From a virus, in IMG/VR virus record IMGVR_UViG_3300045988_148502: DNA of 64,000 nucleotides; one strand, 5' to 3'. Shown here in pieces: positions 2,746 through 46,500 of this stretch; positions within the stretch are counted from its first letter, which is position 1, and each line of letters begins with the position of its first letter. The position numbers were made by a program, and so were the translations under genes. The notes beneath the pieces are model-generated. The model ran no database searches. It was not told the DNA's origin and saw only the letters and a program-made list of their open reading frames with translations.

Positions 2746-2832
2746 GGGAGGATAGCTCAGCGGATAGAGCGGCGGTACGTACCCAAATGGCCAAGATGCA
2801 GCAGGACACAGGTTCAAATCCTGTTCCTCCCA
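2746..2832 (+). tRNA. tRNA-like gene (87 nt) with canonical acceptor, D and T arms but an expanded anticodon region; isotype undetermined
   Basis: Acceptor GGGAGGA/TCCTCCC. D arm GCTC-AGCGGATA-GAGC. T arm ACAGG-TTCAAAT-CCTGT. Discriminator A followed by a T-run. 37 nt lie between the D and T arms instead of about 22. Confidence 0.5.
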
Positions 2833-21978: not shown

Positions 21979-22567
21979 ACTTCTGAATATATCTGGTTAT
22001 TGCCTCTACATGGGTTTTAACAATAGCTTGTTTGCCTTCTTCGGAACAAAGGTACAGGACATCATCCTTGTTATCCTGAAAAAAGTTTTCCGTAAGTACA
22101 GCCGGGCATTTTGTCTTACTCAAAATATAGAAGTTTTCTTCCCAGTCAGGATCGTCGTCAGAATTATCTTTGCGTATTCTTTGACTGATAAAGTTTTTTT
22201 CAGCTTCTTCATACAAGAAAGTTGCCAGTTTATCAGCCTTTGTCTTGCCTTTCGATGTATAAGCGCTCCATCCTCTTGCGTTCATCCATTCTGCACCGTT
22301 TCCGGCAGCATTGCAGTGGATAGAAACAAGAACTACATTGGCCGTTCCATATCGTCCGCAAACTTCGTTTACACGCCTTGCACGTTCTGATAGTGGAACA
22401 TCTACTGTTTCCCGAACAATGCGTTCGGCATCATAACCTCTTGCGGAAAGTTCATGTGCTATTCTATTTGCAATTTCACGTGCATAAGCATATTCACGCA
22501 ACGAACCGTCAGGACTACGTTTTCCGGGAGTGTTTTCACCATGCCCGTTATCAATCAATATCTTCAT
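21962..22567 (-). CDS. N-acetylmuramoyl-L-alanine amidase (Amidase_3-type endolysin, 201 aa)
   Basis: MKILIDNGHGENTPGKRSPDG, VSIHCNAAG and VLTENFFQDN match the amidase_3 zinc-site pattern. Confidence 0.9.
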   Translation of the reverse strand: MKILIDNGHGENTPGKRSPDGSLREYAYAREIANRIAHELSARGYDAERIVRETVDVPLSERARRVNEVCGRYGTANVVLVSIHCNAAGNGAEWMNARGWSAYTSKGKTKADKLATFLYEEAEKNFISQRIRKDNSDDDPDWEENFYILSKTKCPAVLTENFFQDNKDDVLYLCSEEGKQAIVKTHVEAITRYIQKYGKMV

Positions 22568-22581
22568 ACTTATTTATTTGG

Positions 22582-22941
22582 TTAATATTCACTTGGTGGG
22601 ACGCGGTCTGCACAACCATGTTTATTGCATTTCCGGAATTCCAGTGCTTGATTCTGAACGGCAAGCTCGCTGTTCTTTTCGCTTAGCTCGCGGATAGCGT
22701 CACGATACTTGGTTATCTCGGCGTAAAGGTGGTCAATTTTGGCGTCCAGTTCGACAACTCGCTTTTCCTTCTTCTCGTACAATTCTTTCCATTCAGCAGC
22801 ATAAGCTGTGATGTTATCTGCTTCGGTTTTTTCAGCCTCGGCATCTGCCTTTTTCTTTTTGCTTCTAAGCAATAACAAGGGCAATATAACTAATGTGATG
22901 AGCGAACCGACAACTTGGATAATCGTGCTTAGTTGTTCCAT
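22582..22941 (-). CDS. Membrane-anchored coiled-coil protein (119 aa), holin- or spanin-like
   Basis: N-terminal transmembrane segment VVGSLITLVILPLLLL followed by a charged coiled-coil. Lies in the lysis cassette. Confidence 0.5.
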   Translation of the reverse strand: MEQLSTIIQVVGSLITLVILPLLLLRSKKKKADAEAEKTEADNITAYAAEWKELYEKKEKRVVELDAKIDHLYAEITKYRDAIRELSEKNSELAVQNQALEFRKCNKHGCADRVPPSEY

Positions 22942-23174
22942 ATTAAAGTTCCTTCTATTAGTTGTCCTATCATTGCTCCGGCTACTGTAAGACCAAAGTC
23001 AATCCAATCCCATCTACCGCCATGCACCTTGTCTTTATATTCCAAAGCACCTGCTGTCAAAACTCCGGCATACATTGCGGTAAACCAACCAAATGCAAAA
23101 ATGCCGATAATCAGTCCTCCTATGAGGTGTTTCCACCTGTTACTCATTCCGAGCCATTCAATCAACTTTTTCAT
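22929..23174 (-). CDS. Putative holin (81 aa, two to three transmembrane segments)
   Basis: Hydrophobic segments LIGGLIIGIFAFGWFTAMYAGVL and FGLTVAGAMIGQL. Adjacent to the endolysin. Confidence 0.5.
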   Translation of the reverse strand: MKKLIEWLGMSNRWKHLIGGLIIGIFAFGWFTAMYAGVLTAGALEYKDKVHGGRWDWIDFGLTVAGAMIGQLIEGTLIWNN

Positions 23175-23664
23175 CGTTATTACTTTTTAAATTAAATACC
23201 GTCCAATCCACTTCATCCTTTTCTTTCCACCCTTCCTGAACAGTCTTTATCACATAGGCGCACGCTGCTTGGGAGAACGCAATAAAATCATCTGCATTCT
23301 CGAAAGTATGATAGATGGGCGTACCATCTTCCTGTTCATTGATTTTTAGAATAAGCGGATAAGGAATCTTTTCACTACGTTCTATAGCGGAAAAGTTTAA
23401 TTGGTTTTCGGGTGAAAGATATACTGCTTTCCCGTTCCAGACAAAGCCGTTTATAATCTTTTCCTCCGTAGCCGTGTTTATAGCGGACACAACAAGTTCC
23501 TTGACTTCGGAAAGTGTGGGTTTATGGTCGAATGTATGCCGGTACTCCCAGCCATTCTCACTATTCTCATCATCTTTCCCGAAGCCATAAAACAGTATCC
23601 ACTTGGAGCGTCCTGTACGTACAAGACAATCCTGCCGCTTCTTTGTGCCGTAAATCTTTTCCAT
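23158..23664 (-). CDS. DUF4376-like phage protein (168 aa)
   Basis: Segment GFVWNGKAVYLSPENQLNFSA...DADDFIAFSQAACAYV resembles the DUF4376 pattern of fibre-associated proteins. Recall only. Confidence 0.4.
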   Translation of the reverse strand: MEKIYGTKKRQDCLVRTGRSKWILFYGFGKDDENSENGWEYRHTFDHKPTLSEVKELVVSAINTATEEKIINGFVWNGKAVYLSPENQLNFSAIERSEKIPYPLILKINEQEDGTPIYHTFENADDFIAFSQAACAYVIKTVQEGWKEKDEVDWTVFNLKSNNDEKVD

Positions 23665-23731
23665 TGCATGAATTTTGATTTACGACAAAAGTAGCGGATA
23701 CCGAGCGGATTAGTATGTTATCTTTTTCCCG

Positions 23732-25222
23732 TCAGGTAAAATTGTATTTTCGTTTGCCTCCGTCAAACATTTCACATTTGAGAACTGTTTCAAATGGAAA
23801 GCCGTCCTCAATATCGCTGATTTGGTCAAGAATACCTTTCATCTCAACCGATGCAGTAAAGAACTTTCCCCATTCTTGAGTCCTGGGATTGCGGAACGAT
23901 ACCAGATAACGGTCTTCCCCCTCTTTGGTGTCTATTCCTGTTTCAAAATCATGTATCTCAATTGGAATATTTACGATGTCGCTCAAACGCATAACCTTGC
24001 CGGGAAAGCGTTTTTTTCCATCTGCTGGAGTGTACGTAACACCCATTTCGGAAAATTTCTTCATGTTGTTCTTGGTAAGTATATAAAATAAATGTTTGCA
24101 ATCTGCATGGCAGGCCATACCCTTGAATGAACCGATTATTTGCTGTCTCCGTTTCCGTGATTTAATCTTGGAAAGTTTTCGGGCTGCATTTACTTTTGTC
24201 CGTTTTCGTAGCAATGTATAGTCGCCGTAGTTGACAAAGCCAAGGGCATCCATACCGGAGGATATGGGAGCCACTTTTTCGCTTGGTTTTATTGTCAGCC
24301 CTATTTGAGCTGCTTCATAGTGTAGTTTGTCCCGCAATTTCCACAAATCACGTTTACTCTCACCGAGAATAAAGATGTCATCACAAAAACGGAAGTAATG
24401 TTTTGCACCATATTCATCAATCATCCGGTGATCAATATCATTATGGTAAAGGTTTCCAAAGAATTGTGAGGAACGCAGTCCTTTGCTTATGCCATGCTTC
24501 CCGTTGGGATATAGTGCTTTGACAAAATTTTCAAGAATAGGCAATAAGACAGGGTCTCCGACATATCGCCTGATTGTGGAGATTAATATATCATGGTCAA
24601 TACTGTCATAATATCCTTTATAATCGCTTTGATAATAATAGTGTATATTGGGGTTCTCTGCCAATGTATCCTGCACCTGATGGAACAGACCATGCGGTCC
24701 GCGTCCTTGTATGGATGCAGCCGTTGTTTCTATCAATAGGGGTGAAAGATGCTTTTCCAACGGCTCCATAATCGCATTGCTTCCAATACGCTCTATGACT
24801 GACGGGGCTTGCACAATTCTTACTTTCGGTCCGTCATCCACAGTAAACGACTTGAGGTTCTTTATACGGAATGTGCCGTTACCTATCTGTTCTTTCAGCG
24901 CATCAAGTATCTTATGCTTGTTTTTTACATAACGGGCCATTCTTGGTGAACATTCAATGCCATCTATTACAGCTATCTCTCTTTGCCGATTTCCGCTTCG
25001 GGTATCTGCACTTCTCAGATTTGCCATGACACGCTTGAATGACCTTTCCAAATTCTCATCGGATATAATCTCCGGTATGAGATTATATAACGGATAACAG
25101 ACCGCAGTTGCAGCTACGGCCGGTTGGAATAAATCGTATATATCGCTGACCGCCTTCCGGTCTCGTGGGGAGTGGTCCAACCTCTCCCCACATGTGGTTA
25201 AAGATATGTTCCGGCTTTCCAT
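23732..25222 (-). CDS. DGR-type reverse transcriptase (496 aa) with a C-terminal extension
   Basis: YxDD box FRFCDDIFILG. DGR-typical GLRSSQFFGNLY motif. Lies directly downstream of the template repeat. Confidence 0.9.
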   Translation of the reverse strand: MESRNISLTTCGERLDHSPRDRKAVSDIYDLFQPAVAATAVCYPLYNLIPEIISDENLERSFKRVMANLRSADTRSGNRQREIAVIDGIECSPRMARYVKNKHKILDALKEQIGNGTFRIKNLKSFTVDDGPKVRIVQAPSVIERIGSNAIMEPLEKHLSPLLIETTAASIQGRGPHGLFHQVQDTLAENPNIHYYYQSDYKGYYDSIDHDILISTIRRYVGDPVLLPILENFVKALYPNGKHGISKGLRSSQFFGNLYHNDIDHRMIDEYGAKHYFRFCDDIFILGESKRDLWKLRDKLHYEAAQIGLTIKPSEKVAPISSGMDALGFVNYGDYTLLRKRTKVNAARKLSKIKSRKRRQQIIGSFKGMACHADCKHLFYILTKNNMKKFSEMGVTYTPADGKKRFPGKVMRLSDIVNIPIEIHDFETGIDTKEGEDRYLVSFRNPRTQEWGKFFTASVEMKGILDQISDIEDGFPFETVLKCEMFDGGKRKYNFT

Positions 25223-25325
25223 TAATAAATATATATTATCATGCTGTTGCCGAGGCTCGAATCCCTCGGAGAATGGCGGTGGTAATCTCGTACCTGTGCA
25301 GGGTCTCCGATTAATTTAACCAACA

Positions 25326-25441
25326 GAATTTCAGACGCGCCCCGTAGTTCGTGTTCGAGTTCGATGAAGCGTTGTTCGCGTTCGCATAAGCGAGACCGCT
25401 GTTCGCATTCGAGTTGTTGCCGGACCGCAAAACACAACGGC
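25326..25441 (-). repeat. DGR template repeat (TR), 116 nt
   Basis: 99/116 identical to 26338-26453. All 17 differences are T on the + strand, which is A on the coding strand. The TR in the VR reading frame is rich in AAC/AAT codons. Confidence 0.9.
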
Positions 25442-25468
25442 GCGAGGGATTGTCCGCCTTTTATTTTT

Positions 25469-25780
25469 TTAAAGAGTTATGCTTCCTAAACCGGAAATAC
25501 TCAAAGACGCCTTCATACCCATGGCCTTAAACACTCGCGCAATGGTGGAAAGGGTCAGATTACGTCCGCTTTCTATCTTGGATACTTGTGAACGCTGTAC
25601 ACCGATTTTTTGTGCCAATTCCTCTTGGGTCATGTTTTGGGATTTACGGGCTTTTTTTATGGCTTCCCCAATCAAAAATGATTGCAATTCAGCTTCATAC
25701 TTATCCCTGTGCGGTGTACCGACCTCACCTATATGTTTATCCTTAACTTCATCAAGGGTATAAAATTTAATTGCTTCCAT
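25469..25780 (-). CDS. higA: XRE-family HTH antitoxin (HigA-like, 103 aa)
   Basis: HTH segment MTQEELAQKIGVQRSQVSKIESGRNLTLSTIARV. Lies 4 nt downstream of the toxin gene. Confidence 0.75.
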   Translation of the reverse strand: MEAIKFYTLDEVKDKHIGEVGTPHRDKYEAELQSFLIGEAIKKARKSQNMTQEELAQKIGVQRSQVSKIESGRNLTLSTIARVFKAMGMKASLSISGLGSITL

Positions 25781-25784
25781 ATAC

Positions 25785-26129
25785 TTATTTTTTTGAGTTG
25801 AAATATAATATTCTGACGGCTTCCGCCTTGTTTATCTCTTTGCGTGGGGTCTTTTGTGTTTTCTTCACAAATCCATGCGTGGCAATGACCAACGTTTCCG
25901 CGTCGGTGTCCCAAAAAGCCAACAGACGATATTGAATACCTTTATACAGGGTGCGAAACTCCCAAATGTCAGTATCATCTAATTTCTTGAATAAATCTTT
26001 GTCCATATAACCATTGGCTACCTTATCTACATTATAGATAATTTTATCCTTAACGTCTTGGCGCAGAGTGTCAAGAAATGCATCGGCTTCACTCGACATT
26101 ATTACTTTGAATCTCGTTTTCAATTCCAT
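25785..26129 (-). CDS. higB: RelE/HigB-superfamily toxin (Gp49-like, 114 aa)
   Basis: WEFRTLYKGIQYRLLAFWDTD...LVIATHGFVKKTQKTPRKEINKAE matches the Gp49/HigB signature (HGF.KKTQKTP..EI). Confidence 0.75.
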   Translation of the reverse strand: MELKTRFKVIMSSEADAFLDTLRQDVKDKIIYNVDKVANGYMDKDLFKKLDDTDIWEFRTLYKGIQYRLLAFWDTDAETLVIATHGFVKKTQKTPRKEINKAEAVRILYFNSKK

Positions 26130-26230
26130 ATCTTATATCATTCACAATGCAAATATAGTGAAAATGTTCTATATATGGAACGTTTTACAGACAAAAATAC
26201 AACCACATAAAAATTAGTTTCAAAAATCGA

Positions 26231-26279
26231 CTCGCTTACGCGAGAAAAAGAAAGAGGGAGCAGCCTACGGCTCTCCCTC
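26231..26279 (-). terminator. Two stem-loops downstream of the fibre gene and VR: a terminator and a possible DGR target-site hairpin
   Basis: GAGGGAGCAGCC / GGCTCTCCCTC (26254-26279, one bulge) is followed on the - strand by a T-run. CTCGC-GTAA-GCGAG (26231-26244, - strand) has a GNRA-type loop. Confidence 0.55.
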
Positions 26280-26310
26280 CAACGCTTTTTTCGAAATCGC
26301 GAGGTCCGCT

Positions 26311-29300
26311 CTATTCAATTATAACGAATTTTCCGCGGAAGGCCAGACGCGCCCCGCAGAGCGTGTCCGAGCTCGATGAAGCGAAGTACGCGCCCGCAAA
26401 AGCGAGACCGCTGTACGCATACGAGTTGTGGCCGGACCGCAAAACACAACGGCCTCGGCTTCCACTTATCCAAAATCCTGCTGCATAATGTGTTACATAC
26501 ATACTTGTATCTCCCTTGTGTACTCTGCTGGGCAATACATCGCACTTGGCACCATGTACTATGCGCACGACACAATTTCCATTGGAAGCGTCAACTGTTT
26601 TAACAGTCCGTTCGGTTTTGTTTACGGGGTCATAAATATGCACTGTATAATCTATTGGATATGAACTGTCGTTCTCCGTGCATTTTGCCTTGTAGAACGC
26701 TTCATAGCTCGGCACATTAAAAGCGATATAGTCCATCCATTCTGAATCACAACCCACATAATGCTTCAATCCAAGTATGGAGTTGAGCGTATTGCCGGTA
26801 TTATTGCTGTCAGCCATGCCGATGGAATCCAGTTTATTCAGAATGCTGTCATGTCCGCCATTGCCCACAACCGACTGTTCGTTGGTTGTTCCGCTCAAAG
26901 CCCACCATAGATTGCTAATCTCTTTATGCTGTTCGTAATCCTGCAACTGATAGCCAACTCCACGTAAGCGGCAGATGTTTTGGAAATCCTTTGCCGTGTA
27001 ATTCAAACCGCCGATAGGCATCTCAATAGGATTACCCTCACTGTCGTATTTCCATTCGTTAGATGTAACGGACGTCCCGTTGCCTTTCTTCGAACGTATA
27101 TCACCGGAAAGGCTGCGTGGCATCTTCAAACCGTCAACGGTAATAGGATATACACCGACCAGACTGTCGTTGTCGCCAACCGTGTGTTCGGTCCATTCAG
27201 GTTCTATGGCTTCAATACTGCTGCTGTCTACAACAAGGCACTCTATGTCGCCAATGTCACGGAAAGAAGTGAAATAAAACCATTTTGCACCGTTAGGTAT
27301 GTCACAGAACACATAATCACCGATGTTGAAGTCAAAATAGGTATGGCTTACAGACATGATGAACGTACTGAGCACACGGTTGTTTTCGTCAGTGAACACG
27401 CCTCCAAGCCGGGCATGGTTCAGACCGGGCCATCTTACCTGCTTCATTCCTCTCACATCCATCTTGTAGCTGTTCGTATTGGATGCGGTGGTTATGACAT
27501 CCTCGCCTATGACTTCACCGACAACGGCATCAATCGCATACACTCCGGTATTTTCCATATATAGCAATTCCGACAACAGGGATTTTCTGCTATGCAATGC
27601 AGTTGAGAGCGGTTCGGTCTCTGTTATAGAAGGGAAAAAATACTTTACTTGGTTCTTGTAGTCGTTCACTCCCTTGTACCAATGGTGCGGAGCATGCCAG
27701 AATATATCAAAGCCCTCTCCGGCGGTGTCCGTTATGTCAAAGCTGCTGCCGTTTTTCAGGTAGTTGAAATCCGTATCGCTTAACTGCACGCCTTCCATCT
27801 GGTTTTTCTTCGTGTTGAATGAGCATTTATAGGCATGGCATCCTTTCTTGATGGCAAGGGTATGCCCGCTTGGAATATATGTGTTGCCATAATCCGCCCC
27901 CGTCTTATTTTCGGGATTGCTATACTTCTCACACGAATCATTGTCTACCGTATCGCTGATTTTCACAATAGAGAACTGCGAATTATGAAGTTCAAGTTGG
28001 GGAAAATACCGGACAAGCTCTTCGATTTCGTTCTGCTCTATCAGTTCGACCAATATCCATCGTCCGGTTATTCCGCTACACTGTCCTTTTTCATCGTACG
28101 CATTACCATTCGCATCCAATCCTATAGCCCCACCGTTTTTTATGGAACGAAGCATTTCAACACTCGCCGTAGCATTTACGTTGGGAATACGGACGGTTTT
28201 CAATTCACTTGCATTGACCACCTGTTCCAACAGAGTCATCGTATCAATATACGGACATTCATTCACGAATATTTTTGTAACCTTACTGACACCACCAAGA
28301 GAAAGCCCGCCGGGATAAGTCAGATTAGGCAGATTGTTCAATACAAGTTCAGTGATAGTACCGGGAAGGGCAAGCGTACTTATCGGAGAAGTTTCAGCAA
28401 ACGTTATTGCAGACAAAGAAGTATTATCGGCATGCACACTCTCCATTCGTGGACACTTTGAGCAATTGACGGTTATAATTTCCGTGTTTCGAATATCCAA
28501 TGTAGTGAGAAACGGCATGTCTCCTAAATCCAAATTGGTAAGAAATCCGGTGTTTCCAGGCGACATTTTCCATTCCTTATGATTTTCACTACCGAGATAC
28601 AGTTCCTGTAGCAACGACATTTTTGAAAGGGTATTCCCGAATTGAGGGTCAATACTTACTTCACTTAAATCTATCATGCTCATGCGGTCTGCCTGATATA
28701 TGTACAGCATGATGTTTTCCCCATGCTGGAAATCTGTGAATGTACCGCTTTCCCCTGCCTTCAGAAAGATTCCCTGTGTAATGTTTCCACTATCGTTACC
28801 GATACCGAAATACCCACTCTTGGCCGCTTTAAATCTGATGACTGCACCTTCTTTTGCACCGATACGTCCACCAATATAACCGCTTTCCGCCTTGAAATCC
28901 CCACAGCGGTAGTATCCGTCACGGATGCGCCAGCGTTGTTCTATAAAAGCGGGAAGAGATGTCAGCCCCAGTCCTTGCAATGCATAGAAATAGAGGTCGT
29001 TGTATCCTGTATATTTGATATACTTCCGTTCTCCGTCATAACTTGAAACAACCTTAGGCCATTTTTTCATTATCTGTTTTACAAAATAATAGTCAGCTCC
29101 CTTGGGAGAAAACGGTCCGGCACCGATTCCAAGTGTATCGGGAAGCGAACGCATCGTATCTGCTATTGCAGGCAATGTAATTGTATTGGCATTTTGGTCT
29201 ACATCCATAGTCTGCTGACCACGTATATCATTCCAAAGCACGCTTCCTCTTCCGGCGTATGCACTGTTTGTCAGATCACCGGGGTCAACTTCCGGGTCAA

Positions 29301-32300
29301 TGGTTTGCCCGCCGTCATTATCCTTACCGTTGCAGGTATCACAGTCATAAACTTTATTAAGGTACATTCTTCGCGCTTCCATACCGTTTGCTCCGCTATA
29401 AACACCGTCCTTGACGCTACAGCCGTCTTCAAGGAAGAACATCGGTTGCATGTTTTTCGCCTGTTGGTCGACAGCGGCAAGATAATCGGTGAAAAGATAA
29501 TAGGAAACCAACGAGTATGGATTGATGTATTTCCACATCTGTGTCTTCCAAATTTCCTGCCATTTCCCTGCGAGCTCTTCCTTGGCATAATCGCAACTGT
29601 CGCAGAATTTCAGTACTTGGTACAGGTCGAACGGTACTTTCCGTCCCATGGCCAGGTCTATCTGTAACTGGTCATCGTCAATCATGCACTCGAAGTAACG
29701 TGTCCACATCGGGTAGGTTTCCTGTCCGAGTTTGAGTTTCGTTACCCACGAGGACTCTGCGGTAGTAGGTTCCATCATGTCTTCAACGCTGCCAACCCCT
29801 TGCCACCAGTTCATTCCATCATATGTGAGCAATTCGTAACCGCTTACCGGATTAAGGACCTTGCCTGTAATCTTCCACTTGCCGTTTTCCTGCTTCATCT
29901 CTCCGGCTTGTCGCGTCCACTCTCCCCGTTCGTATGACATAAACCGGTAGTCCTGCCCGCAATATAGGGAAAGAAGATAAAGCTTTTCTTTATCGGTGGT
30001 AATATCATTCTTGAAACGTGTTTCTATCTGGTCGATGCTTTCGCCCTTTTGTCCGAAATATTCCACAAAATCTCCATAGTTCACGCAGCCTTTATTGTAA
30101 CCGGGAGTATCTTTAAACCCAAGCGCAACCTGTTCTCCCTTATCCTCCTTCCAGTTCCCTTTTGCATGAAACCATGCGTCTGTCAAGCTTTCCTGTGTAG
30201 CACGGAATGCGGCAATGGGATGATTGGCTGTCGAGTGATTCATTTCCAATCCCTTTAATGATATGTCACTCTTTGCCCAAGTTCCATCAAATGAACGCTG
30301 TGCGGGAGTCAGGTAATTACTTCCGAGTGCACGAAATGTGGCGTTCATCAAACCGCACACACCGCAGTCGTTGGCATTGGAGCTGTCGGAATAATCCACT
30401 TTCACCGTTATTATTTTTACCGGAATAGAATCTTCGCCTACACGGACATAACCTATTCTCATCAGTTTATATGATATTTGAGCATCTTCACTGTCATAAT
30501 CCGGATAAATAGGAGTTACCTCCCAGCCATCATTCTTTTGAAGATAGAAACGGTCGTTCTTGATAGGCCGTTTTGCCGAAGTGGTTCCCTGCCTGCGCCA
30601 TTGCACATTGATAGCCTTAAAACTTCTCCACGGCATAGTCGGATGATAATAGAACAACGTACATTTGAACTTCTTGCTTGTATCAATATCACCGTCAAAC
30701 GTGTCAAAAGTTTGCTGGTCTGACACGACCACATAATAAGGTATGCCTTTTGCGGAAAGGGCTTCTATTGTCGGACGATTCTGTGTATCAAGCACATTCT
30801 CCGCTTCATACTCCTGTATCATTGCTGAAGTATCAGTCAACTTGCACAAATAGTTTCTAAAAGCTTGCGCCCATTCATAATGACTGTTGTAGGCAAGTAC
30901 ATAATACAAATACAAGTCTCCTTCCGTTCCGTCAAATGTTATGGTTTTTGAATTAAGGATAGCACCGCTATTACTGATATATCCTATACAGCCGACCTCT
31001 TCACCATTCAAATACAGTTTGATACAGGAATAATTGCTTCCCCCACGTGATACATAAATGGTAGATGGTTCTACAACTACGGCCATGGTAATTTTTTCAC
31101 CTTGTCGGAATGAGCGTTCCACCAAAGCCGGTTGTCCGGTCTTGCAGTATATCGCAGCTTTATTTCCACAGACATAGAAACCGGCTCCGCTATCAGGGTC
31201 ATAGCATTCTATCAGCTTTGAATCAGCTTCCTTGATATTTTTGGTGGCAAAGGCAAATTGGATGGCACATCCGCTCGTAGTTTCCACTGATGCGTTTCCA
31301 AAAGGATGGTAATCCAATATTTCAGCTGTTACATTTTCTGCAATACGCAAAGAACGCTCCTTAAGAAAGTCTACAAATCCGTTGCTTGACCAGTTTGCAC
31401 CTCGTACATCCATTGTCACTCCGTTATGTGTGATAGTATGATCGCTCTCACTGTTGCTACGTGTAGAAAAATCATATCCGAACAAAGCACCGTCCTTGAT
31501 CGCTATATCAATGGCACTCCCTTTTATCGTAACCTTGATTTCATTGGTGGATACACCGCCACTTTCGGCATGTACGGTAATACTTTGGCTTCCGTCCGTA
31601 CTATATCCGCTTATCTGCTTGTTCACTGTAACCGTTTCGGCAATCATAGCTTCCACAGCTGTAACTTTCTCCTCGCTGTAGAAAACATCTACATGCGTTT
31701 CAGTCTTGCCGGGAGTATACGCAGCCACCTCTACGGTAAGGTTGTCATATAAACGTAACGTGCCGTTGTTCTTGTCATTGAACCTGATGGCGACGATGGG
31801 AGTATTACTGTTTTCGTCCACACACATGATAGCGGAATAGATGGTGTTTCCCTTTACTCCGGATTTCTTCTCCGTACCGTATATTCGTACAGGATATGCG
31901 CCATGCGAAAGTCTTTCTCCGCCACCGAATACATTTGTTGGATTGACAGAGATGCCTTTGGTATAACTGTCGCTTACCGTTGCTTCACCAAGTTTCTTCC
32001 ATTCTCCATTATAGAACATCTCCACTACTGCAAGAATGGATGAAGTGTTATTAGGGAATTTATAGAATTGTCCGATATTTTTTGCCGGACCACCTGCAAC
32101 AAGGATAGTATCACTTGTGTAATTCAAAGCCATGGGTTGTTCTACGGTAATATCCACAGCCATAATGGTAATGGCTTTTTTCTTGGTATTTCCATCCGAA
32201 TCTGTAGCTTGCACAAAGAAGCTTTTGCTGGCGGCACTGCTGAAATAACTTGTGAAGTCAAGTTCAAACTTGTAATCGGTCGCACTTGCAGAGCCTACAG

Positions 32301-34248
32301 TGTTCATATCCTCACTGGATAATGTCAGTCCGGTGCTTGCATCAATAATAGTGATGTTACGAATGACACCAAGCACCTCGTTACCATCAGGATAGCTGAC
32401 ACTACGCAAAGCTACATTGATTTTTATCTCTGAGCCGAATGCCATAATAGGAGCGGCTTCCTCGAAGTAGATAGACAATGTACTATCCTCACTGGAGCCG
32501 CCACCACCTCCATTTTTGGGTATTTTAAGCACAATATCCTCTATCTGTCCGCCATTCAGATTGGTGGCTTTGTAGTAAATGTAGTCTTCATCACTTTCTT
32601 CATCAAATCCGCCGATAGCTTTCTCCTGCATTATGTATGCCCCGCCTGTGGAAAGGGCATCTTTTCCTCCCTCTGCCGGTTTGTCGGATGTTTCCACCTT
32701 GCTTCCGCCACTGCCGAATGCTACCCACGGTTTCAGATCATCAGGGCTGATGTCACTCTTATCGCGTGTGAACTGATAGGCAAGCCATACAGGTGCGCCA
32801 TTTTTATCACTTTCCGCAGTCTTGAATGTAAGGACGATACCGCTTTTCAAATAAGAGAACCCGCTTTCTTTCTCAAGGTCAACAACAGCTTTTATGGCTG
32901 TTCCCAAAGTATATTCTCCATCTCCGCAAAGGTCGTTCACGTTGATGGTGTTGCCTACGTTTCCACCACCGGAAGTCCCGAAATCCGTCCAGTTGCTTTC
33001 TTTACTCCAATCAGAGGTATTTGTCCATTGTTTTGAAACCCATCCGGCTTCTGTAAGGAATATCAAGACAACACCCGGAATCTGCAAAGCAGAAGCATAT
33101 TCAGAAGTCGCACACCTGTCAAGTGCTACGGAAAATGTTATCTCCCTATCTGAAAGGTCAAACAGATGGTTGACATTCACAACGCTACGCGATACGACTT
33201 GTTTATTGAGTGAAAGTATTGCCTTCTTGTTTTCTTCGACCTGCTTCATATCTTCCTGTAACTTCGCACCTTCATCACCGGGGAATGCAGTAGAGCTTGT
33301 ATGTCCGAGAGCAAGGTCGGAGCCAATTGAAGTCAGTTGTTTACCGCTCCAACGATAACTTTTTCCATCTTCTTCACATAGAAAGACTTTGCCGGAAGAG
33401 GGTATTCGCCCGTTTGTACTTGCCGTACCGAAAACATCTGCATCCAACCAGTTGTTATAATAAGTAGCAGTCTCGGATTCTCCGATTGTCGGAACGTATG
33501 CAAGCACAAAGCAACCATGTTCCTTATCATATACAACTTTACAACCCTCATCGTTGGAATTTTTGTCTATGGATTCATTTTTTACAGTAATGCCTACGGA
33601 AATGCCATAAAAATCTACCACGTCATCAATGTATCCGGGCAAATGTCGGCTCGGTACTTTCCCTTGTTCGTCAAGAGGGGCGATTCCTCCGTTTTCACCT
33701 TTTGATTCTTTGAAAGAGTTCAGTTGGCTTCCAACTTCATTCGCCTTGTTGTTTGCCTTGTTTGCGGTATCCTTGGTCGTGTTTACTTGGTCTTGCAACG
33801 AGTTGACACTATCACCAAGCGTGGTGAGGTTGGTGTCTTGCGCTTTGTTGCGGGCTTCTATATCCGTAATGTCGTCCTGCAGTTTGGTAATATCCTCTTG
33901 CAGTTTTTCTACGGCTTCGTTATACTGACCGCTGTCTATGGTCGGGTTGCCTCCACTCTGTCCGGTCGGGACCCATTCTCCGCCATCGCCCACATATATG
34001 GGAGCTGGTAAGGAAACACCCACAAGTGCCCACCATCCGTCATGTGGTAAAGGATAAGCCGCTTTCAGTTTTTCGATGGTCGTGAACAGTCCTTTGCTCA
34101 CTCCCTTGATATTTTTTGCCTCAAGCCAGCCGTCCACCATTACGTTTCCTTTCAAGTGGGTCTTTCCCTGAACGGTCGCGTCACCACCTATCGCTGTATT
34201 GCGACCAACGGAGACATCACCGTCTATATGTTTTGATTCGTAACTCAT
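26311..34248 (-). CDS. Giant tail fibre / receptor-binding protein (2645 aa); DGR target
   Basis: N-terminal beta-helix-like repeats and a coiled-coil (about 33650-33950). Leucine-rich-repeat-like region (about 28150-28560). C-terminal VR in a C-type-lectin-like context (...CGARLAFRG). Confidence 0.85.
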   Translation of the reverse strand: MSYESKHIDGDVSVGRNTAIGGDATVQGKTHLKGNVMVDGWLEAKNIKGVSKGLFTTIEKLKAAYPLPHDGWWALVGVSLPAPIYVGDGGEWVPTGQSGGNPTIDSGQYNEAVEKLQEDITKLQDDITDIEARNKAQDTNLTTLGDSVNSLQDQVNTTKDTANKANNKANEVGSQLNSFKESKGENGGIAPLDEQGKVPSRHLPGYIDDVVDFYGISVGITVKNESIDKNSNDEGCKVVYDKEHGCFVLAYVPTIGESETATYYNNWLDADVFGTASTNGRIPSSGKVFLCEEDGKSYRWSGKQLTSIGSDLALGHTSSTAFPGDEGAKLQEDMKQVEENKKAILSLNKQVVSRSVVNVNHLFDLSDREITFSVALDRCATSEYASALQIPGVVLIFLTEAGWVSKQWTNTSDWSKESNWTDFGTSGGGNVGNTINVNDLCGDGEYTLGTAIKAVVDLEKESGFSYLKSGIVLTFKTAESDKNGAPVWLAYQFTRDKSDISPDDLKPWVAFGSGGSKVETSDKPAEGGKDALSTGGAYIMQEKAIGGFDEESDEDYIYYKATNLNGGQIEDIVLKIPKNGGGGGSSEDSTLSIYFEEAAPIMAFGSEIKINVALRSVSYPDGNEVLGVIRNITIIDASTGLTLSSEDMNTVGSASATDYKFELDFTSYFSSAASKSFFVQATDSDGNTKKKAITIMAVDITVEQPMALNYTSDTILVAGGPAKNIGQFYKFPNNTSSILAVVEMFYNGEWKKLGEATVSDSYTKGISVNPTNVFGGGERLSHGAYPVRIYGTEKKSGVKGNTIYSAIMCVDENSNTPIVAIRFNDKNNGTLRLYDNLTVEVAAYTPGKTETHVDVFYSEEKVTAVEAMIAETVTVNKQISGYSTDGSQSITVHAESGGVSTNEIKVTIKGSAIDIAIKDGALFGYDFSTRSNSESDHTITHNGVTMDVRGANWSSNGFVDFLKERSLRIAENVTAEILDYHPFGNASVETTSGCAIQFAFATKNIKEADSKLIECYDPDSGAGFYVCGNKAAIYCKTGQPALVERSFRQGEKITMAVVVEPSTIYVSRGGSNYSCIKLYLNGEEVGCIGYISNSGAILNSKTITFDGTEGDLYLYYVLAYNSHYEWAQAFRNYLCKLTDTSAMIQEYEAENVLDTQNRPTIEALSAKGIPYYVVVSDQQTFDTFDGDIDTSKKFKCTLFYYHPTMPWRSFKAINVQWRRQGTTSAKRPIKNDRFYLQKNDGWEVTPIYPDYDSEDAQISYKLMRIGYVRVGEDSIPVKIITVKVDYSDSSNANDCGVCGLMNATFRALGSNYLTPAQRSFDGTWAKSDISLKGLEMNHSTANHPIAAFRATQESLTDAWFHAKGNWKEDKGEQVALGFKDTPGYNKGCVNYGDFVEYFGQKGESIDQIETRFKNDITTDKEKLYLLSLYCGQDYRFMSYERGEWTRQAGEMKQENGKWKITGKVLNPVSGYELLTYDGMNWWQGVGSVEDMMEPTTAESSWVTKLKLGQETYPMWTRYFECMIDDDQLQIDLAMGRKVPFDLYQVLKFCDSCDYAKEELAGKWQEIWKTQMWKYINPYSLVSYYLFTDYLAAVDQQAKNMQPMFFLEDGCSVKDGVYSGANGMEARRMYLNKVYDCDTCNGKDNDGGQTIDPEVDPGDLTNSAYAGRGSVLWNDIRGQQTMDVDQNANTITLPAIADTMRSLPDTLGIGAGPFSPKGADYYFVKQIMKKWPKVVSSYDGERKYIKYTGYNDLYFYALQGLGLTSLPAFIEQRWRIRDGYYRCGDFKAESGYIGGRIGAKEGAVIRFKAAKSGYFGIGNDSGNITQGIFLKAGESGTFTDFQHGENIMLYIYQADRMSMIDLSEVSIDPQFGNTLSKMSLLQELYLGSENHKEWKMSPGNTGFLTNLDLGDMPFLTTLDIRNTEIITVNCSKCPRMESVHADNTSLSAITFAETSPISTLALPGTITELVLNNLPNLTYPGGLSLGGVSKVTKIFVNECPYIDTMTLLEQVVNASELKTVRIPNVNATASVEMLRSIKNGGAIGLDANGNAYDEKGQCSGITGRWILVELIEQNEIEELVRYFPQLELHNSQFSIVKISDTVDNDSCEKYSNPENKTGADYGNTYIPSGHTLAIKKGCHAYKCSFNTKKNQMEGVQLSDTDFNYLKNGSSFDITDTAGEGFDIFWHAPHHWYKGVNDYKNQVKYFFPSITETEPLSTALHSRKSLLSELLYMENTGVYAIDAVVGEVIGEDVITTASNTNSYKMDVRGMKQVRWPGLNHARLGGVFTDENNRVLSTFIMSVSHTYFDFNIGDYVFCDIPNGAKWFYFTSFRDIGDIECLVVDSSSIEAIEPEWTEHTVGDNDSLVGVYPITVDGLKMPRSLSGDIRSKKGNGTSVTSNEWKYDSEGNPIEMPIGGLNYTAKDFQNICRLRGVGYQLQDYEQHKEISNLWWALSGTTNEQSVVGNGGHDSILNKLDSIGMADSNNTGNTLNSILGLKHYVGCDSEWMDYIAFNVPSYEAFYKAKCTENDSSYPIDYTVHIYDPVNKTERTVKTVDASNGNCVVRIVHGAKCDVLPSRVHKGDTSMYVTHYAAGFWISGSRGRCVLRSGHNSYAYSGLAFAGAYFASSSSDTLCGARLAFRGKFVIIE
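26338..26453 (-). repeat. DGR variable repeat (VR), 116 nt, encoding the last ~45 residues of the fibre
   Basis: See the TR entry. VR encodes ...GRCVLRSGHNSYAYSGLAFAGAYFASSSSDTLCGARLAF; TR encodes GRCVLRSGNNSNANSGLAYANANNASSNSNTNYGARLKF. Confidence 0.9.
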
Positions 34249-43522: not shown

Positions 43523-46500
43523 CTATTTACGGGTTTTGTTCATTTCTTCTATCATTTCCTTTTTGAGTTCGTTCAACTCGGCTTCAATATCCTTGCGTTC
43601 CTCGTCACTGATTGCTTCTTTTAATTCATTGTAGAGGTCGTCAATGTCTTCACGGTAATCCTCGAAGATTTCGTAACGCTCGTATTCGGGTGAATTGTAA
43701 AGGAAATCAATCTTTTCCGCATAGTCAAATATGTCGTTGTCGGTATCTTCTTCATAGTGCTTCAATCGGGATTTCAACCGGTCATGCTCCTCTTTCAATC
43801 GGAAATACTCATTGTTCACAGCCCTGTACTCGGTGCGTTCGTCCCCGGCTTTGACCAGCCTGTTTGCCAACAAGAAGCTGCGAGGGTCGTACTCACGGTT
43901 GCCTGTAACGGTTTCTACCATCTTGCTCAACTTGTCGATTGTTCCGAACACGCCACCGAAATAACCGTTCAGCATATATTCAATCTTTGCCGGATTAAAG
44001 TCAATCGTTCCTTTTGTATATGGGTCTCCACCCGTAGCTTCATTCATGGCATTGGCCAATCCGACAATGTATTTATTGGCACTCTTATACGCCTTTGTCC
44101 ATTCGGGCATATCTTTGTTGTAAGGTGTGTCTTTATAAAGTGGCATACCCGTCCAACTCTTTTCTGCAACGTAGGCTTCCCACAAGGGTTTGTAGGCACT
44201 CGGTACAAAGGCATTCAATCCTCCGCCGCCCTCCAAGAAATCAATAGGTAATATCTGTGTAGCCTGTCCTGTTATGGCTTCGGCAATTTCTCCGTCTGTA
44301 AGATGTTCCTTTCCGTTAAGGACGGAAATCATCAGTTCGCCCATACCGTAAACAGCCCTGTATTCTACCGGAAGAGGAATTGATACCCAACTGTTTCCTG
44401 CCCTGAAAAGAATATTGCTGCGCCTTACATATTCGGGAAGATTATAGTATGCGTTCTTGTCATCATCGTCATCATCATCGCCACCCAAGTAGGCAACAAT
44501 GGCACCAAGAAGGAACATCGCCGCAATACCTGTAAAAGCTTTGGCAGGATGGCGTTTCATCTGTCGTCCAAAGTTTGCCGTACCTTGAATGGCTGCATTC
44601 CAAAACACATAGCCGCTACGACCAAGTCCCGATACCAATGCACTGGCATTACCAGCCTTTGTCTGCCCTGTACTGTCATAGAATTTTGCTCCGCTGCCTT
44701 TCTTGTTGAAGTTTACGCTTATCTCCTTTGCATCATAGATGGCTCTGTCAATGCTCCGGCCCATTTCGCGTGATGTCATGAAAGCGGCAAAACGGGCGCA
44801 GTTCTCAACGGCTCGGTTGTACTCATCGAAACGTCCGCCCAACAAGTCCCATGCTTTTTTTACAGGAATCTTGCCGTTTGATTTTTTCAGTTCCCTGCGT
44901 ATGTCGTTCTTATGTTGTTCAATGTCCCGGATATTGGCATAGCCTGTTTCTCCTCCGTTCATCATGAACTGATGAAACATCGCTTCCGTCTTGTTACTCA
45001 TGTCAAGTGTCCCTTTGCGGTGCTTTGCCAAGAGTTGCTTTATCCTTACAGGATTGGCATACATATAATTGCGATGAAAACGAAGTGCGTAGTTCGGGCT
45101 TTCCCTTATCCAAGTCATGGTGTTGGTGTATAGCATATCTCGCATGAAGTTCGATACGATGAAGTCCGGGTTGCGTGTGGTATAGAACGCACTCAACTGT
45201 CGGTTGATGTTTTCACCGGCACGGAGAATGGCCCCGATTGCCCCCGACATATCGTTGTCGGGATTTGTCTGTCCGTTCAATGCTTGTGCCGCACGTGGAT
45301 TGCCGTTTATGGTAATCACATAGTCCCTGCCGCCACGCTTCACTACAATTTGGTGCTGCCTCATATCCCGGCTTTCCACAATACGGTAAGGAATATTCAC
45401 GGTATCTTTGCCATGCTTGTACCGGTCAGGATATTGCTGTGCCAATGACTCCATTTTAGTTTCAAAGTCCAGCATCTTCCGTTCCACCACTTCGGGAGTA
45501 TCTGTACTGTCTATGTTGTCAGGAAACACTGGCTTCCATTCGTCGGCCACCGTATCGTATTCTACCCAAATGTCGCTCACACTGACAAGGTCGCTCGGAT
45601 GGTTGAGGGCGAAATTAAGGAAACGCTGTTTTACCAATTTGTTCCGGTTGCCCTGCATGATAGCACCTTCTGCCATTGATTGCAGGTTGGCAAACGGGTC
45701 ATCCGCTTTCGACCTGCGTCCTTCCGCTTTCTTGATAGGAGCATTGAATGCACTTTGCTTGTGCGTCAGATATGCGTATGCTTCAGAACTGGTCTTTTCG
45801 TCAAAACCACGTAGCGGAATGTAAAAATCATACATATCTGAAATTTTATCAAAGGTCGCTTTACTCATCATGCCACATTCGTATGACTTTGAAAGTATTG
45901 CTTTGCTCGCGGCATTGACTTTTTTCCAAAGGTCGGTAGTGTCGTGTGCCTGTTCGTAATCGTTAACCATTATCTGTGCTTCCGTTTCGGCATCAGCAAC
46001 ATTATCCATACCTGTAAGGGCTGTAAGTCCGGCATAGTCGGTTTGGTCTGCATCGGTTGCTCCGTTATTGATTGCTTCATTACGCATATATGTATTGCGT
46101 TCAAGGCCGTGTTTCGCCATCATGTAATCAGTCAATTCCTCACGCTCTGCCTCAGTCCTGGCAAGTTTGGCAACCTCATCAAGCATGGGCTTGAACAGGG
46201 TGTGGGCAAACGCATCGGCTTCGGCTTTGTTCACACTTGACAGACGGTTTTCTCCCAAGTATGCGTTTTCAAATCCGTCCACATCCTCAATGTTTGTTTC
46301 CTTGCCAAGGATTGCAGTCATGGCTTCTTTCAAGCCGAGCATACTGTCCTGTAATGCTTCCTGTGATTGGAACATACCGCTTTTTACACGCCTTTCATAA
46401 CGGTCACGAGCCAACTCCCTTTCATGTATTTCCGGGTCACCGGTACGGTATAGTGCATCATCACTTTCTGCAACAGTCTGATGATGTGGGTCGGAAACCG

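Follow-up and report, generated by a model that had tools for sequence, protein, structure and literature searches.

In a window of 64,000 nucleotides, the whole stretch of viral DNA analysed here, we identify an active, Avd-less diversity-generating retroelement (DGR) that belongs to the Hankyphage-like Bacteroides lineage; the temperate Bacteroides phage carrying it is essentially BS-TP4. We put the probability of this reading at roughly 0.95. The locus has the anatomy of a DGR, an adenine-specific pattern of differences between its two repeats (TR and VR), a reverse transcriptase (RT) of the DGR type and, in the natural population, an invariant TR beside hypervariable VRs. The DGR itself is already known through BS-TP4, and its lineage is known as well, as the Hankyphage type. 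The initial annotation of the window had described a complete DGR; TR, VR and RT are indeed present, but the locus has no avd gene, as is known for this lineage. The features of the locus are listed in Table 1.

Table 1 Positions of the DGR components and neighbouring features in the window
Feature	Position	Strand	Basis and details
TR	25326-25441	-	28 adenines, 25 mutable; ungapped TR/VR comparison
VR	26338-26453	-	Hypervariable tract 26357-26430; ungapped comparison and differences from BS-TP4
Candidate IMH-like target-recognition element, GCCTTCCGCGG, at the VR 3' edge	26333-26343	-	TR counterpart is AAATTCTGTTG
Target gene, 2645-aa phage structural / host-recognition protein, VR at C-terminus	26311-34248	-	ORF; gp14 of BS-TP4
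Strong hairpin followed by TTTCTTTTT, predicted terminator of target gene	26254-26279	-	DNA fold -23.4 kcal/mol, z = -2.5
Second small terminator hairpin, predicted	26231-26244	-	Fold prediction
Two Bacteroides-type -7 motifs (TAnnTTTG) upstream of toxin gene	26192-26199, 26150-26157	-	Motif scan
Gp49/HigB-like (RelE superfamily) toxin gene, between VR and TR	25785-26129	-	Pfam Gp49, 65.3 bits, cut-off 23.9
XRE/HTH_3 antitoxin-like gene	25469-25780	-	Pfam HTH_3, 56.9 bits, above cut-off
RT-3 RNA (Rfam RF03068)	25149-25312	-	74.5 bits, gathering score 40.5
DGR RT, 496 aa, with conserved ~115-aa C-terminal domain	23732-25222	-	Pfam RVT_1; PDB sequence and fold matches
Candidate gene for a CH1-type DGR accessory protein (168 aa, acidic, pI 5.0)	23158-23664	-	Position, homology and published description of CH1

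An ungapped comparison of the two repeats, at an offset of 1012 nt, matched 99 of 116 nt, the identity that the initial annotation had counted by hand. A separate repeat search recovered a 110-nt core of the pair at 87% identity, and no third copy of the repeat was found in the 64-kb window. All 17 mismatches fall at a T of the TR + strand and hence at an A of its coding (-) strand; with 28 T among the 116 TR bases, the hypergeometric probability of 17 out of 17 is P = 2.1e-13. Realignment left every mismatch at a TR adenine, and the adenine-only pattern claimed earlier therefore stands. The count of 17, however, combines two kinds of difference: 14 are true hypervariable sites within the tract given in Table 1, and the remaining three (26341-26343), where the TR has AAA and the VR has GCC, are constant in every one of the 54 related TR/VR pairs. 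Because of this constancy, the 3'-terminal AAA/GCC difference is a fixed TR/VR boundary and not a product of hypermutation. An A-free, GC-rich stretch, GGGGCGCGTCTG, precedes it in both repeats, and GGCCTTCCGCGG, which follows the VR in the window, is also present after the VR of Hankyphage. The VR 3' boundary element is a candidate for an IMH-like role in target recognition.

The adenines of the TR are distributed 13, 13 and 2 over codon positions 1, 2 and 3, and ten codons are AAY. The 25 mutable adenines fall in 15 codons, of which one is silent, so that 14 amino-acid positions can be recoded; substitution of A cannot create any stop codon. The coding capacity of the TR amounts to 1.1e15 DNA variants and 1.5e14 peptide variants. 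Our translations of TR and VR agree with those given earlier except at the first TR residue, which is R and not G, a discrepancy that arises because the codon spans the repeat edge.

A published close relative of the window is the isolate BS-TP4 (PQ571277.1), in which a DGR was called with myDGR and gp14 was named as its target (Gut Microbes 2025, PMC12694917). The two genomes are 99.4% identical over 22.5 kb and carry the same element, with the same TR, RT (99.4% aa identity), toxin-antitoxin (TA) pair and target, gp14. They differ in the VR allele: the TRs are identical, and the VRs differ at 14 sites, 14/14 of which are at TR adenines and inside the hypervariable tract. The GenBank record of BS-TP4 labels the DGR parts only as 'reverse transcriptase' and 'hypothetical protein', and neither the examined features of this record nor the consulted passages of PMC12694917 refer to the RT-3 RNA, to the CH1-like gene or to any connection of the TA pair with the DGR.

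Natural relatives in IMG/VR present the same pattern. Across 54 TR/VR pairs, with 53 different VRs and 10 different TRs, 704 mismatches lie at TR adenines versus 33 elsewhere (737 total). In the 99% group the TR is identical in every contig but L010. Genomes whose RTs are 99-100% identical share a constant TR, and their VRs differ solely at TR-A sites; such differences between near-identical genomes require recent activity. The initial annotation had proposed looking for VR polymorphism restricted to TR-adenine positions, and this is what both the BS-TP4 comparison and the 54 pairs reveal. The VR, or a point close to it, is also where at least 17 IMG/VR contigs stop, which is what one would expect if assembly broke on VRs that vary within a sample.

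The RT is encoded by an intact ORF that begins 103 nt past the TR and carries the FCDD and GLRSSQ motifs, in agreement with the placement and motifs noted initially. DGR RTs are recognised by a motif 4 of the form [LIV]GxxxSQ together with a YxDD catalytic motif, and in an alignment with the solved Bordetella DGR RT 8ub7, GLRSSQ and FCDD stand opposite its GSLTSQ and YMDD. This structure is also the top PDB sequence match (E 4e-21), with a group II intron RT at E 5e-10. The top fold matches are 8ubd and 8ub7 ('DGR ribonucleoprotein reverse transcriptase'), with a TM of 0.75 on target, and tblastn gave 41% identity to the Hankyphage RT over residues 48-496. In sequence and fold the enzyme is thus closest to DGR RTs, and the initial annotation's reading of the locus as a signature of mutagenic retrohoming is supported by the repeats, the RT and the VR polymorphism alike; none of the three refuting outcomes named there was observed. 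In an AF2 model with a pLDDT of 75.6, the C-terminal domain is predicted to be arranged as b1-b2-b3-helix-b4-b5, and in the family alignment this domain is nearly invariant. Directly after the TR lies an RT-3 RNA that spans model positions 1-148 of 148, occurs at the equivalent position in BKO1-TP3 (72.8 bits) and Hankyphage (146.6 bits), and has compensatory changes in 13 of 36 predicted pairs. The related RT-10 motif occupies the same position in BPP-1 (Weinberg et al.).

Damaged relatives, three with collapsed cassettes, one with a VR deletion and one whose TR lacks 13 adenines, together with the absence of Avd, could suggest that the locus is a fossil, in which TR, VR and RT are remnants and the target is no longer diversified. 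We regard this as very unlikely, since the RT ORF retains its catalytic motifs, the TR has kept all 25 mutable adenines, and the VRs of near-identical genomes have diverged at TR-A sites over identical TRs. Even less credible is the reading in which a duplicated segment has diverged by ordinary recombination, gene conversion or diversifying selection, with the RT beside it belonging to an unrelated system, for instance a retron, group II intron or defence RT. The repeats do recombine, as seen in the collapsed loci and in TRs that VR-like sequence has overwritten, but selection or conversion cannot give 704 of 737 mismatches at TR adenines with a constant TR copy. In NCBIfam the RT has weak matches to RT models of group II introns, Drt3a and retrons, every one of them far under its cut-off, whereas its best matches in sequence and fold are DGR RTs and its SQ motif is DGR-specific. 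No intron RNA domains flank the RT and no retron msr/msd was found; RT-3 follows the TR directly instead.

Hypervariable sites are places where assemblies of metagenomic reads often fragment or merge alleles, and the many IMG/VR contigs that end at the VR might be taken to mean that the VR of the window is no real allele but a chimera, or a consensus built from a mixture of reads. We attach almost no weight to this explanation: dozens of independent contigs, as well as the isolate BS-TP4, have clean single alleles with the same architecture, and an assembly artefact would neither be limited to TR-adenine positions nor keep the reading frame.

The VR forms the final ~40 codons of the 2645-aa target ORF, whose C-terminal 400 aa are homologous to the DGR target of Hankyphage (BLASTP, E 1e-22). 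A C-type lectin domain has been reported for the latter, and this homology is the one line of support for a C-type lectin fold of the VR domain in the window. An AF2 model of the domain, built on a 21-sequence alignment, reached a pLDDT of 44, and its Pfam and PDB sequence searches gave no match. The VR region is presumably the receptor-binding tip of a host-recognition protein. The strong hairpin ~60 nt downstream of the VR looks like an ordinary terminator and not a Bordetella-type cruciform beside an IMH.

The toxin and antitoxin-like genes are on the same strand, toxin first and 4 nt apart, and the antitoxin-like stop codon is 28 nt upstream of the TR. In the BS-TP4 record the toxin counterpart is labelled addiction module toxin RelE; the antitoxin-like product also has NCBIfam matches to antitoxin-type HTH models, each below cut-off. 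By gene arrangement and family assignment, the two are predicted to form a type II HigB/HigA-like pair. The TAnnTTTG motifs upstream of the toxin gene, against a background of 0.47 per kb on the - strand, are putative promoters, and the - strand scan found no TAnnTTTG in the interval from the antitoxin gene to the RT. All 80 IMG/VR loci have the gene for the acidic protein downstream of the RT, and in the window, BS-TP4 and BKO1-TP3 it follows the RT immediately. Its product is homologous to that of the gene after the Hankyphage RT (E 1e-16) and has a weak DUF4376 match, below cut-off.

Neither the ORFs of the cassette nor 10 small ORFs beside it gave an Avd family match (Pfam, E <= 0.1). Avd is present in ~74% of DGRs, 29% are without any accessory gene, and lineage 3 lacks avd. 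Because Avd-less DGRs are an accepted class, the missing Avd does not exclude membership; it does mean that the Bordetella mechanism is not transferable step by step. An Avd-less Bacteroides lineage, 3a, with Architecture E and a CH1 accessory gene, was described by Wu et al. 2018 (PMC5758913), and the window resembles it in its Bacteroides host, in having no avd, HRDC or MSL gene, and in an RT extended at its C-terminus, by up to ~150 aa in lineage 3a. CH1 is 160-169 aa long with a pI of 4.7 and lies beside the RT, and the acidic protein of the window is a candidate CH1, fitting the description by Wu et al. in size, charge and lineage. By the same published description, the window DGR is a candidate member of lineage 3a. 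Lineage 3a differs in that no TA pair is among the accessory genes in Wu et al.

Among characterised systems, the DGR of Hankyphage (Bacteroides phage p00; Benler 2018, PMC6199706), whose activity has been demonstrated experimentally (PMC12135933), has the same order of a giant target with a C-terminal VR, a spacer, a 116-nt TR, RT-3, the RT and a ~165-aa acidic protein. Its RT has the same C-terminal domain, and its acidic protein and target C-terminus are homologous to those of the window. The Hankyphage VR-TR spacing, however, is ~370 nt and holds a 64-aa basic ORF where the window has the TA pair; its RT starts after RT-3, whereas that of the window starts inside it; and Hankyphage is a Mu-like, transposable phage of 43 kb, whereas the window phage is integrase-encoding and 64 kb. 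The prototype DGR, that of the Bordetella phage BPP-1, shares AAY codons and an adenine-specific transfer of information from TR to VR, with the VR at the C-terminus of a phage receptor-binding protein, and its RT is the closest solved structure to the window RT. It differs in requiring Avd, in an RT of 328 aa without the C-terminal domain, and in IMH and cruciform elements that are not recognisably conserved in the window. The BPP-1 target, Mtd, is 381 aa long, far shorter than the target in the window.

As an active, Avd-less DGR, the locus would work as follows. A transcript would start at the Bacteroides-type promoter before the TA pair and run through the TR and RT-3 into the RT gene. The RT would use the structured RT-3 spacer as the Bordetella enzyme uses the TR-RT spacer, probably priming from RT-3, and would copy the TR to cDNA, misincorporating opposite adenines. 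At the 3' end of the target gene, this cDNA would then replace the VR and recode 14 positions of the presumed receptor-binding tip, giving access to ~1e14 peptides with no reachable stop codon. The TR may be spared by its different 3' boundary, AAATTC instead of GCCTTC. The CH1-like protein, the RT C-terminal domain and the TA pair may each have a role in the DGR. A more far-reaching proposal, which we consider doubtful, is that of a distinct Avd-independent machine, in which RT-3, the invariant OB-like RT C-terminal domain and the CH1-like protein replace Avd. The TA pair would then be no passenger; it would supply an autoregulated promoter for TR and RT, and might act against lysogens in which recombination between the repeats has removed the VR-TR interval. 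If this were true, collapsed cassettes and eroded templating TRs would represent two natural failure modes of DGRs.

Several relatives carry altered cassettes. Those of BKO1-TP3, L023 and L071 are collapsed and have no separate VR, the VR of L019 is internally deleted, and 13 adenines are missing from the L078 TR. VR-like sequence has also overwritten some TRs. In L073, L075, L078 and L010, eroded TRs still template VRs; these, together with the collapsed DGRs, are mildly new observations.

The initial annotation described a complete diversity-generating retroelement (DGR) in which a 116-nt template repeat (TR) and variable repeat (VR), aligned by hand, are identical at 99 positions and differ only at template adenines. 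The region 23500-27500 was read and repeat-searched, and an ungapped comparison of the two repeats at an offset of 1012 nt matched the hand alignment exactly. Every one of the 17 mismatches coincides with a T in the + strand of TR, hence with an A in the coding (-) strand, and none falls at a non-adenine TR position; with 28 T among the 116 bases of TR, the chance of this outcome is 2e-13. The reading of all 17 mismatches as products of adenine mutagenesis has to be narrowed. Fourteen of them (26357-26430) are hypervariable, whereas the last three, where VR reads GCC (26341-26343) and TR reads AAA (25329-25331), are constant in 54 of 54 related TR/VR pairs, so the window carries 14 hypervariable differences and a fixed 3-nt boundary. 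Each of the remaining 25 adenine positions varies among the 54 related pairs, and these mutable adenines allow ~1.1e15 DNA and 1.5e14 peptide variants. The TR adenines are distributed over codon positions 1, 2 and 3 as 13, 13 and 2. Ten of the codons are AAY, and substitution of A cannot produce a stop codon. No third TR/VR copy was found on either strand of the window, nor was a second VR or a remote target found in it.

Features of the DGR cassette in the window
Feature	Coordinates	Strand	Remarks
CH1-like acidic protein	23158-23664	-	168 aa, pI 5.0; directly after RT
Reverse transcriptase (RT) ORF	23732-25222	-	Pfam RVT_1
RT C-terminal domain	23732-24073	-	~115 aa (residues ~383-496)
RT-3 RNA	25149-25312	-	Rfam RF03068; 74.5 bits vs gathering score 40.5
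TR	25326-25441	-	116 nt
Gp49/HigB-like toxin and XRE antitoxin genes	25469-26129	-	between VR and TR
VR	26338-26453	-	116 nt
Target ORF	26311-34248	-	2645 aa; last ~40 codons are VR

Comparison with relatives bears on whether the element diversifies its target. The Bacteroides phage BS-TP4 (PQ571277.1) is 99.4% identical to the window over 22.5 kb; its TR is unchanged, and its VR differs at 14 positions, 14 of 14 at TR adenines. We collected 80 IMG/VR loci with a related RT, which form identity groups of ~99%, 83% and 74%. In the 54 loci that hold both repeats, 704 mismatches lie at TR adenines versus 33 elsewhere, many of the latter due to a single locus with an indel, and there are 53 distinct VR sequences for 10 distinct TRs. 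VR polymorphism is therefore present among relatives and almost wholly confined to TR adenines. In addition, at least 17 of the IMG/VR contigs stop at or near VR, and about 20 stop inside it or close beside it (L006, L008-L013, L021, L022, L025, L028, L032, L033, L037, L047, L048, L052, L055, L060 and L062). This pattern suggests that metagenomic assemblies break here through VR heterogeneity within samples. The three observations that the initial annotation had named as speaking against a DGR (mismatches off the TR adenines, an RT outside the DGR clade, an invariant VR in populations) were each looked for, and none was made. We consider it very probable (about 95%) that the window element is an active DGR. 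The 140 differences between BS-TP4 and the window are clustered, with 44 in 1.5 kb of the target gene (29000-30500), 16 near lysis genes (22000-23000) and 3 just upstream of VR (26457-26476). None of these clusters lies within a TR-homologous tract, and they are probably recombination patches or the outcome of ordinary selection.

The RT ORF begins 103 nt past TR, as first annotated, and encodes a DGR RT. Its closest PDB sequence is 8ub7 (E 4e-21), whereas a group II intron RT reaches only E 5e-10. In the alignment with 8ub7, GLRSSQ and FCDD of the window RT are paired with SQ and YMDD. An AF2 model (pLDDT 75.6) gave as top fold matches 8ubd and 8ub7, both described as 'DGR ribonucleoprotein reverse transcriptase', and the NCBIfam group II, Drt and retron models all scored far under their cut-offs. 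Residues 48-496 are 41% identical to the RT of the Bacteroides phage Hankyphage in a search of a phage collection, and the Hankyphage DGR has been demonstrated by experiment to be active (PMC12135933).

Between TR and RT lies the RT-3 RNA, which begins 13 nt past TR and occupies the same position in Hankyphage and in BKO1-TP3, a cultured phage relative. A seven-sequence alignment contains compensatory changes at 13 of 36 pairs. RT-3 is one of the motifs RT-1 to RT-19 described by Weinberg et al., and a literature search for 'RT-3 RNA' together with reverse transcriptase returned no paper. Evidently, RT-3 serves as spacer RNA in the Hankyphage-like, Avd-less lineage (Avd, accessory variability determinant), giving this orphan Rfam motif a role in DGRs. 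In the window the RNA covers the ATG of the RT ORF together with its first 24 codons (25149-25222, - strand), whereas the Hankyphage RT starts after RT-3. Because of this overlap, the disorder of residues 1-39 in the AF2 model and the start of homologues at 55% identity ~40 residues further in, the RT start codon is uncertain; otherwise the region may be of dual use.

Pfam searches of the cassette ORFs and ten neighbouring small ORFs, which took in a 71-aa ORF overlapping TR and a 64-aa ORF of Hankyphage, found no match to Avd. This absence is consistent with published surveys, in which 29% of DGRs are without an accessory gene and avd is missing from lineage 3, lineage 3a being confined to Bacteroides. 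Parts of the locus that may replace Avd could interest DGR specialists. Across the family, conservation is highest in the C-terminal ~115 aa of the RT, which stay near-invariant down to 55% identity. No Pfam match was found for this domain, whose modelled order of strands and helix (b1-b2-b3-helix-b4-b5) gives an OB-like topology. C-terminal extensions of this kind occur in ~20% of DGR RTs according to published DGR surveys, and the domain is a possible Avd substitute. A further part is the acidic protein encoded after the RT, found there in 80 of 80 loci and homologous to the product of the gene after the Hankyphage RT (E 1e-16). The protein matches what has been published on the CH1 accessory gene, whose products of 160-169 aa and pI 4.7 are exclusive to avd-less DGRs, and Architecture E1 is exclusive to lineage 3a (Wu et al. 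2018, PMC5758913). Since its sole Pfam match is a weak one to DUF4376, the protein may equally be the product of a phage tail-related gene that merely travels with the target.

Modelling and searches did not confirm a C-type lectin fold in the target. An AF2 model of its last 330 aa, built on an alignment of 21 sequences, reached a pLDDT of 44, too poor for a fold search, and no meaningful match to the C-terminus came from PDB or Pfam by sequence or profile. Homology to the Hankyphage target, for which a C-type lectin domain has been reported, extends over the C-terminal 400 aa (E 1e-22).

The fixed GCC/AAA boundary is preceded by GGGGCGCGTCTG, which is A-free and GC-rich, and GGCCTTCCGCGG is likewise found 3' of VR in the distantly related Hankyphage. 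In Bordetella, the distinction between IMH and IMH*, the VR-side and TR-side 3' boundary elements, reportedly keeps cDNA out of TR (Doulatov 2004; Guo 2008). By analogy, the GCC/AAA boundary is a likely candidate for an equivalent discriminator.

The toxin-antitoxin (TA) slot between VR and TR holds three strongly diverged alleles among relatives, with amino acid identities of 100/93%, 63/58% and 44/33%. One subgroup has only a short non-coding spacer in the slot, with TAnnTTTG, a Bacteroides-type -7 motif, just upstream of TR; the Hankyphage slot is a similarly short spacer with this motif and without a TA pair. The relatives compared for the slot include L018, L053, L056 and L042, and also L086. 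A sigma-70 promoter scan did not exceed the shuffled background and is unsuited to Bacteroides; it was dropped and TAnnTTTG motifs were counted instead. Upstream of its toxin gene the window has two such motifs, against none between the antitoxin gene and RT. Because the motifs occur only upstream of the toxin gene and no terminator-like site was found between the antitoxin gene and TR, it is probable that one transcript carries TR, RT-3 and RT together with the TA operon. The embedded pair might putatively drive or stabilise the cassette.

Several relatives carry damaged cassettes. In BKO1-TP3 (L002/L005, 25417-25532) and the IMG/VR loci L023 (3777-3892) and L071 (3786-3901), the VR-type 5' flank of the giant gene leads directly into a repeat that is TR-like throughout and keeps every adenine, after which come the TR-type 3' flank, RT-3 and RT. 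All of them are without the TA pair and without a separate VR, and a search of the whole BKO1-TP3 genome found no second repeat copy. This arrangement is consistent with a deletion by recombination between VR and TR within the first 23 identical nt of the direct repeats. The collapsed BKO1-TP3 form could also be regarded as ancestral. We rejected this reading because complete and collapsed forms share the same flanks within two separate sublineages, which makes independent deletions more parsimonious. Collapsed forms occur in two sublineages or more, and a cultured phage isolate represents one of these.

Erosion of TR was found at other loci. L073 and L075 (both 3786-3901) have the same TR, which retains its TR flanks but lacks 9 of the adenines, and their VRs differ from each other, carry exactly the substitutions of the eroded TR and vary only at its leftover adenines. 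The TR of L078 (3786-3901) equals its own VR except at the AAA/GCC boundary, and that of L010 (946-1061) has lost 8 adenines; across these four copies, each in the place of TR and flanked as TR is, the loss amounts to 8-13 adenines. The L073 and L075 VRs inherit the substitutions of the eroded TR, so a TR can be overwritten by mutagenised sequence and keep templating. Deletion between VR and TR and overwriting of TR thereby appear as modes of DGR decay in nature, and a non-exhaustive literature search found no earlier statement of collapsed cassettes or eroded TRs. Another damaged variant is the VR of L019 (2790-2880), nearly TR-like apart from an in-register deletion in its interior.

The window DGR is already known as an element of a known lineage (Hankyphage-like, Avd-less, Bacteroides), because the BS-TP4 DGR with its target gp14 was reported through myDGR (Gut Microbes 2025, PMC12694917) and the Hankyphage DGR (PMC6199706) has its parts in the same order: target with VR, spacer, 116-nt TR, RT-3, RT and acidic protein. 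This lineage has been surveyed and its activity demonstrated. The value of the locus is as a clean natural example, with 54 TR/VR pairs from one lineage and near-perfect adenine specificity. Leads of modest value come from the machinery that works without Avd, from the TA pair inside the cassette and from the modes of decay in relatives. Elsewhere in the window, ARAGORN found no tRNA, and Rfam called one of 87 nt at 2746-2832 (+ strand; 50.5 bits). A single ORF of 5391 aa occupies 43523-59698 (- strand), and its BKO1-TP3 counterpart is annotated as a DarB-like antirestriction protein.
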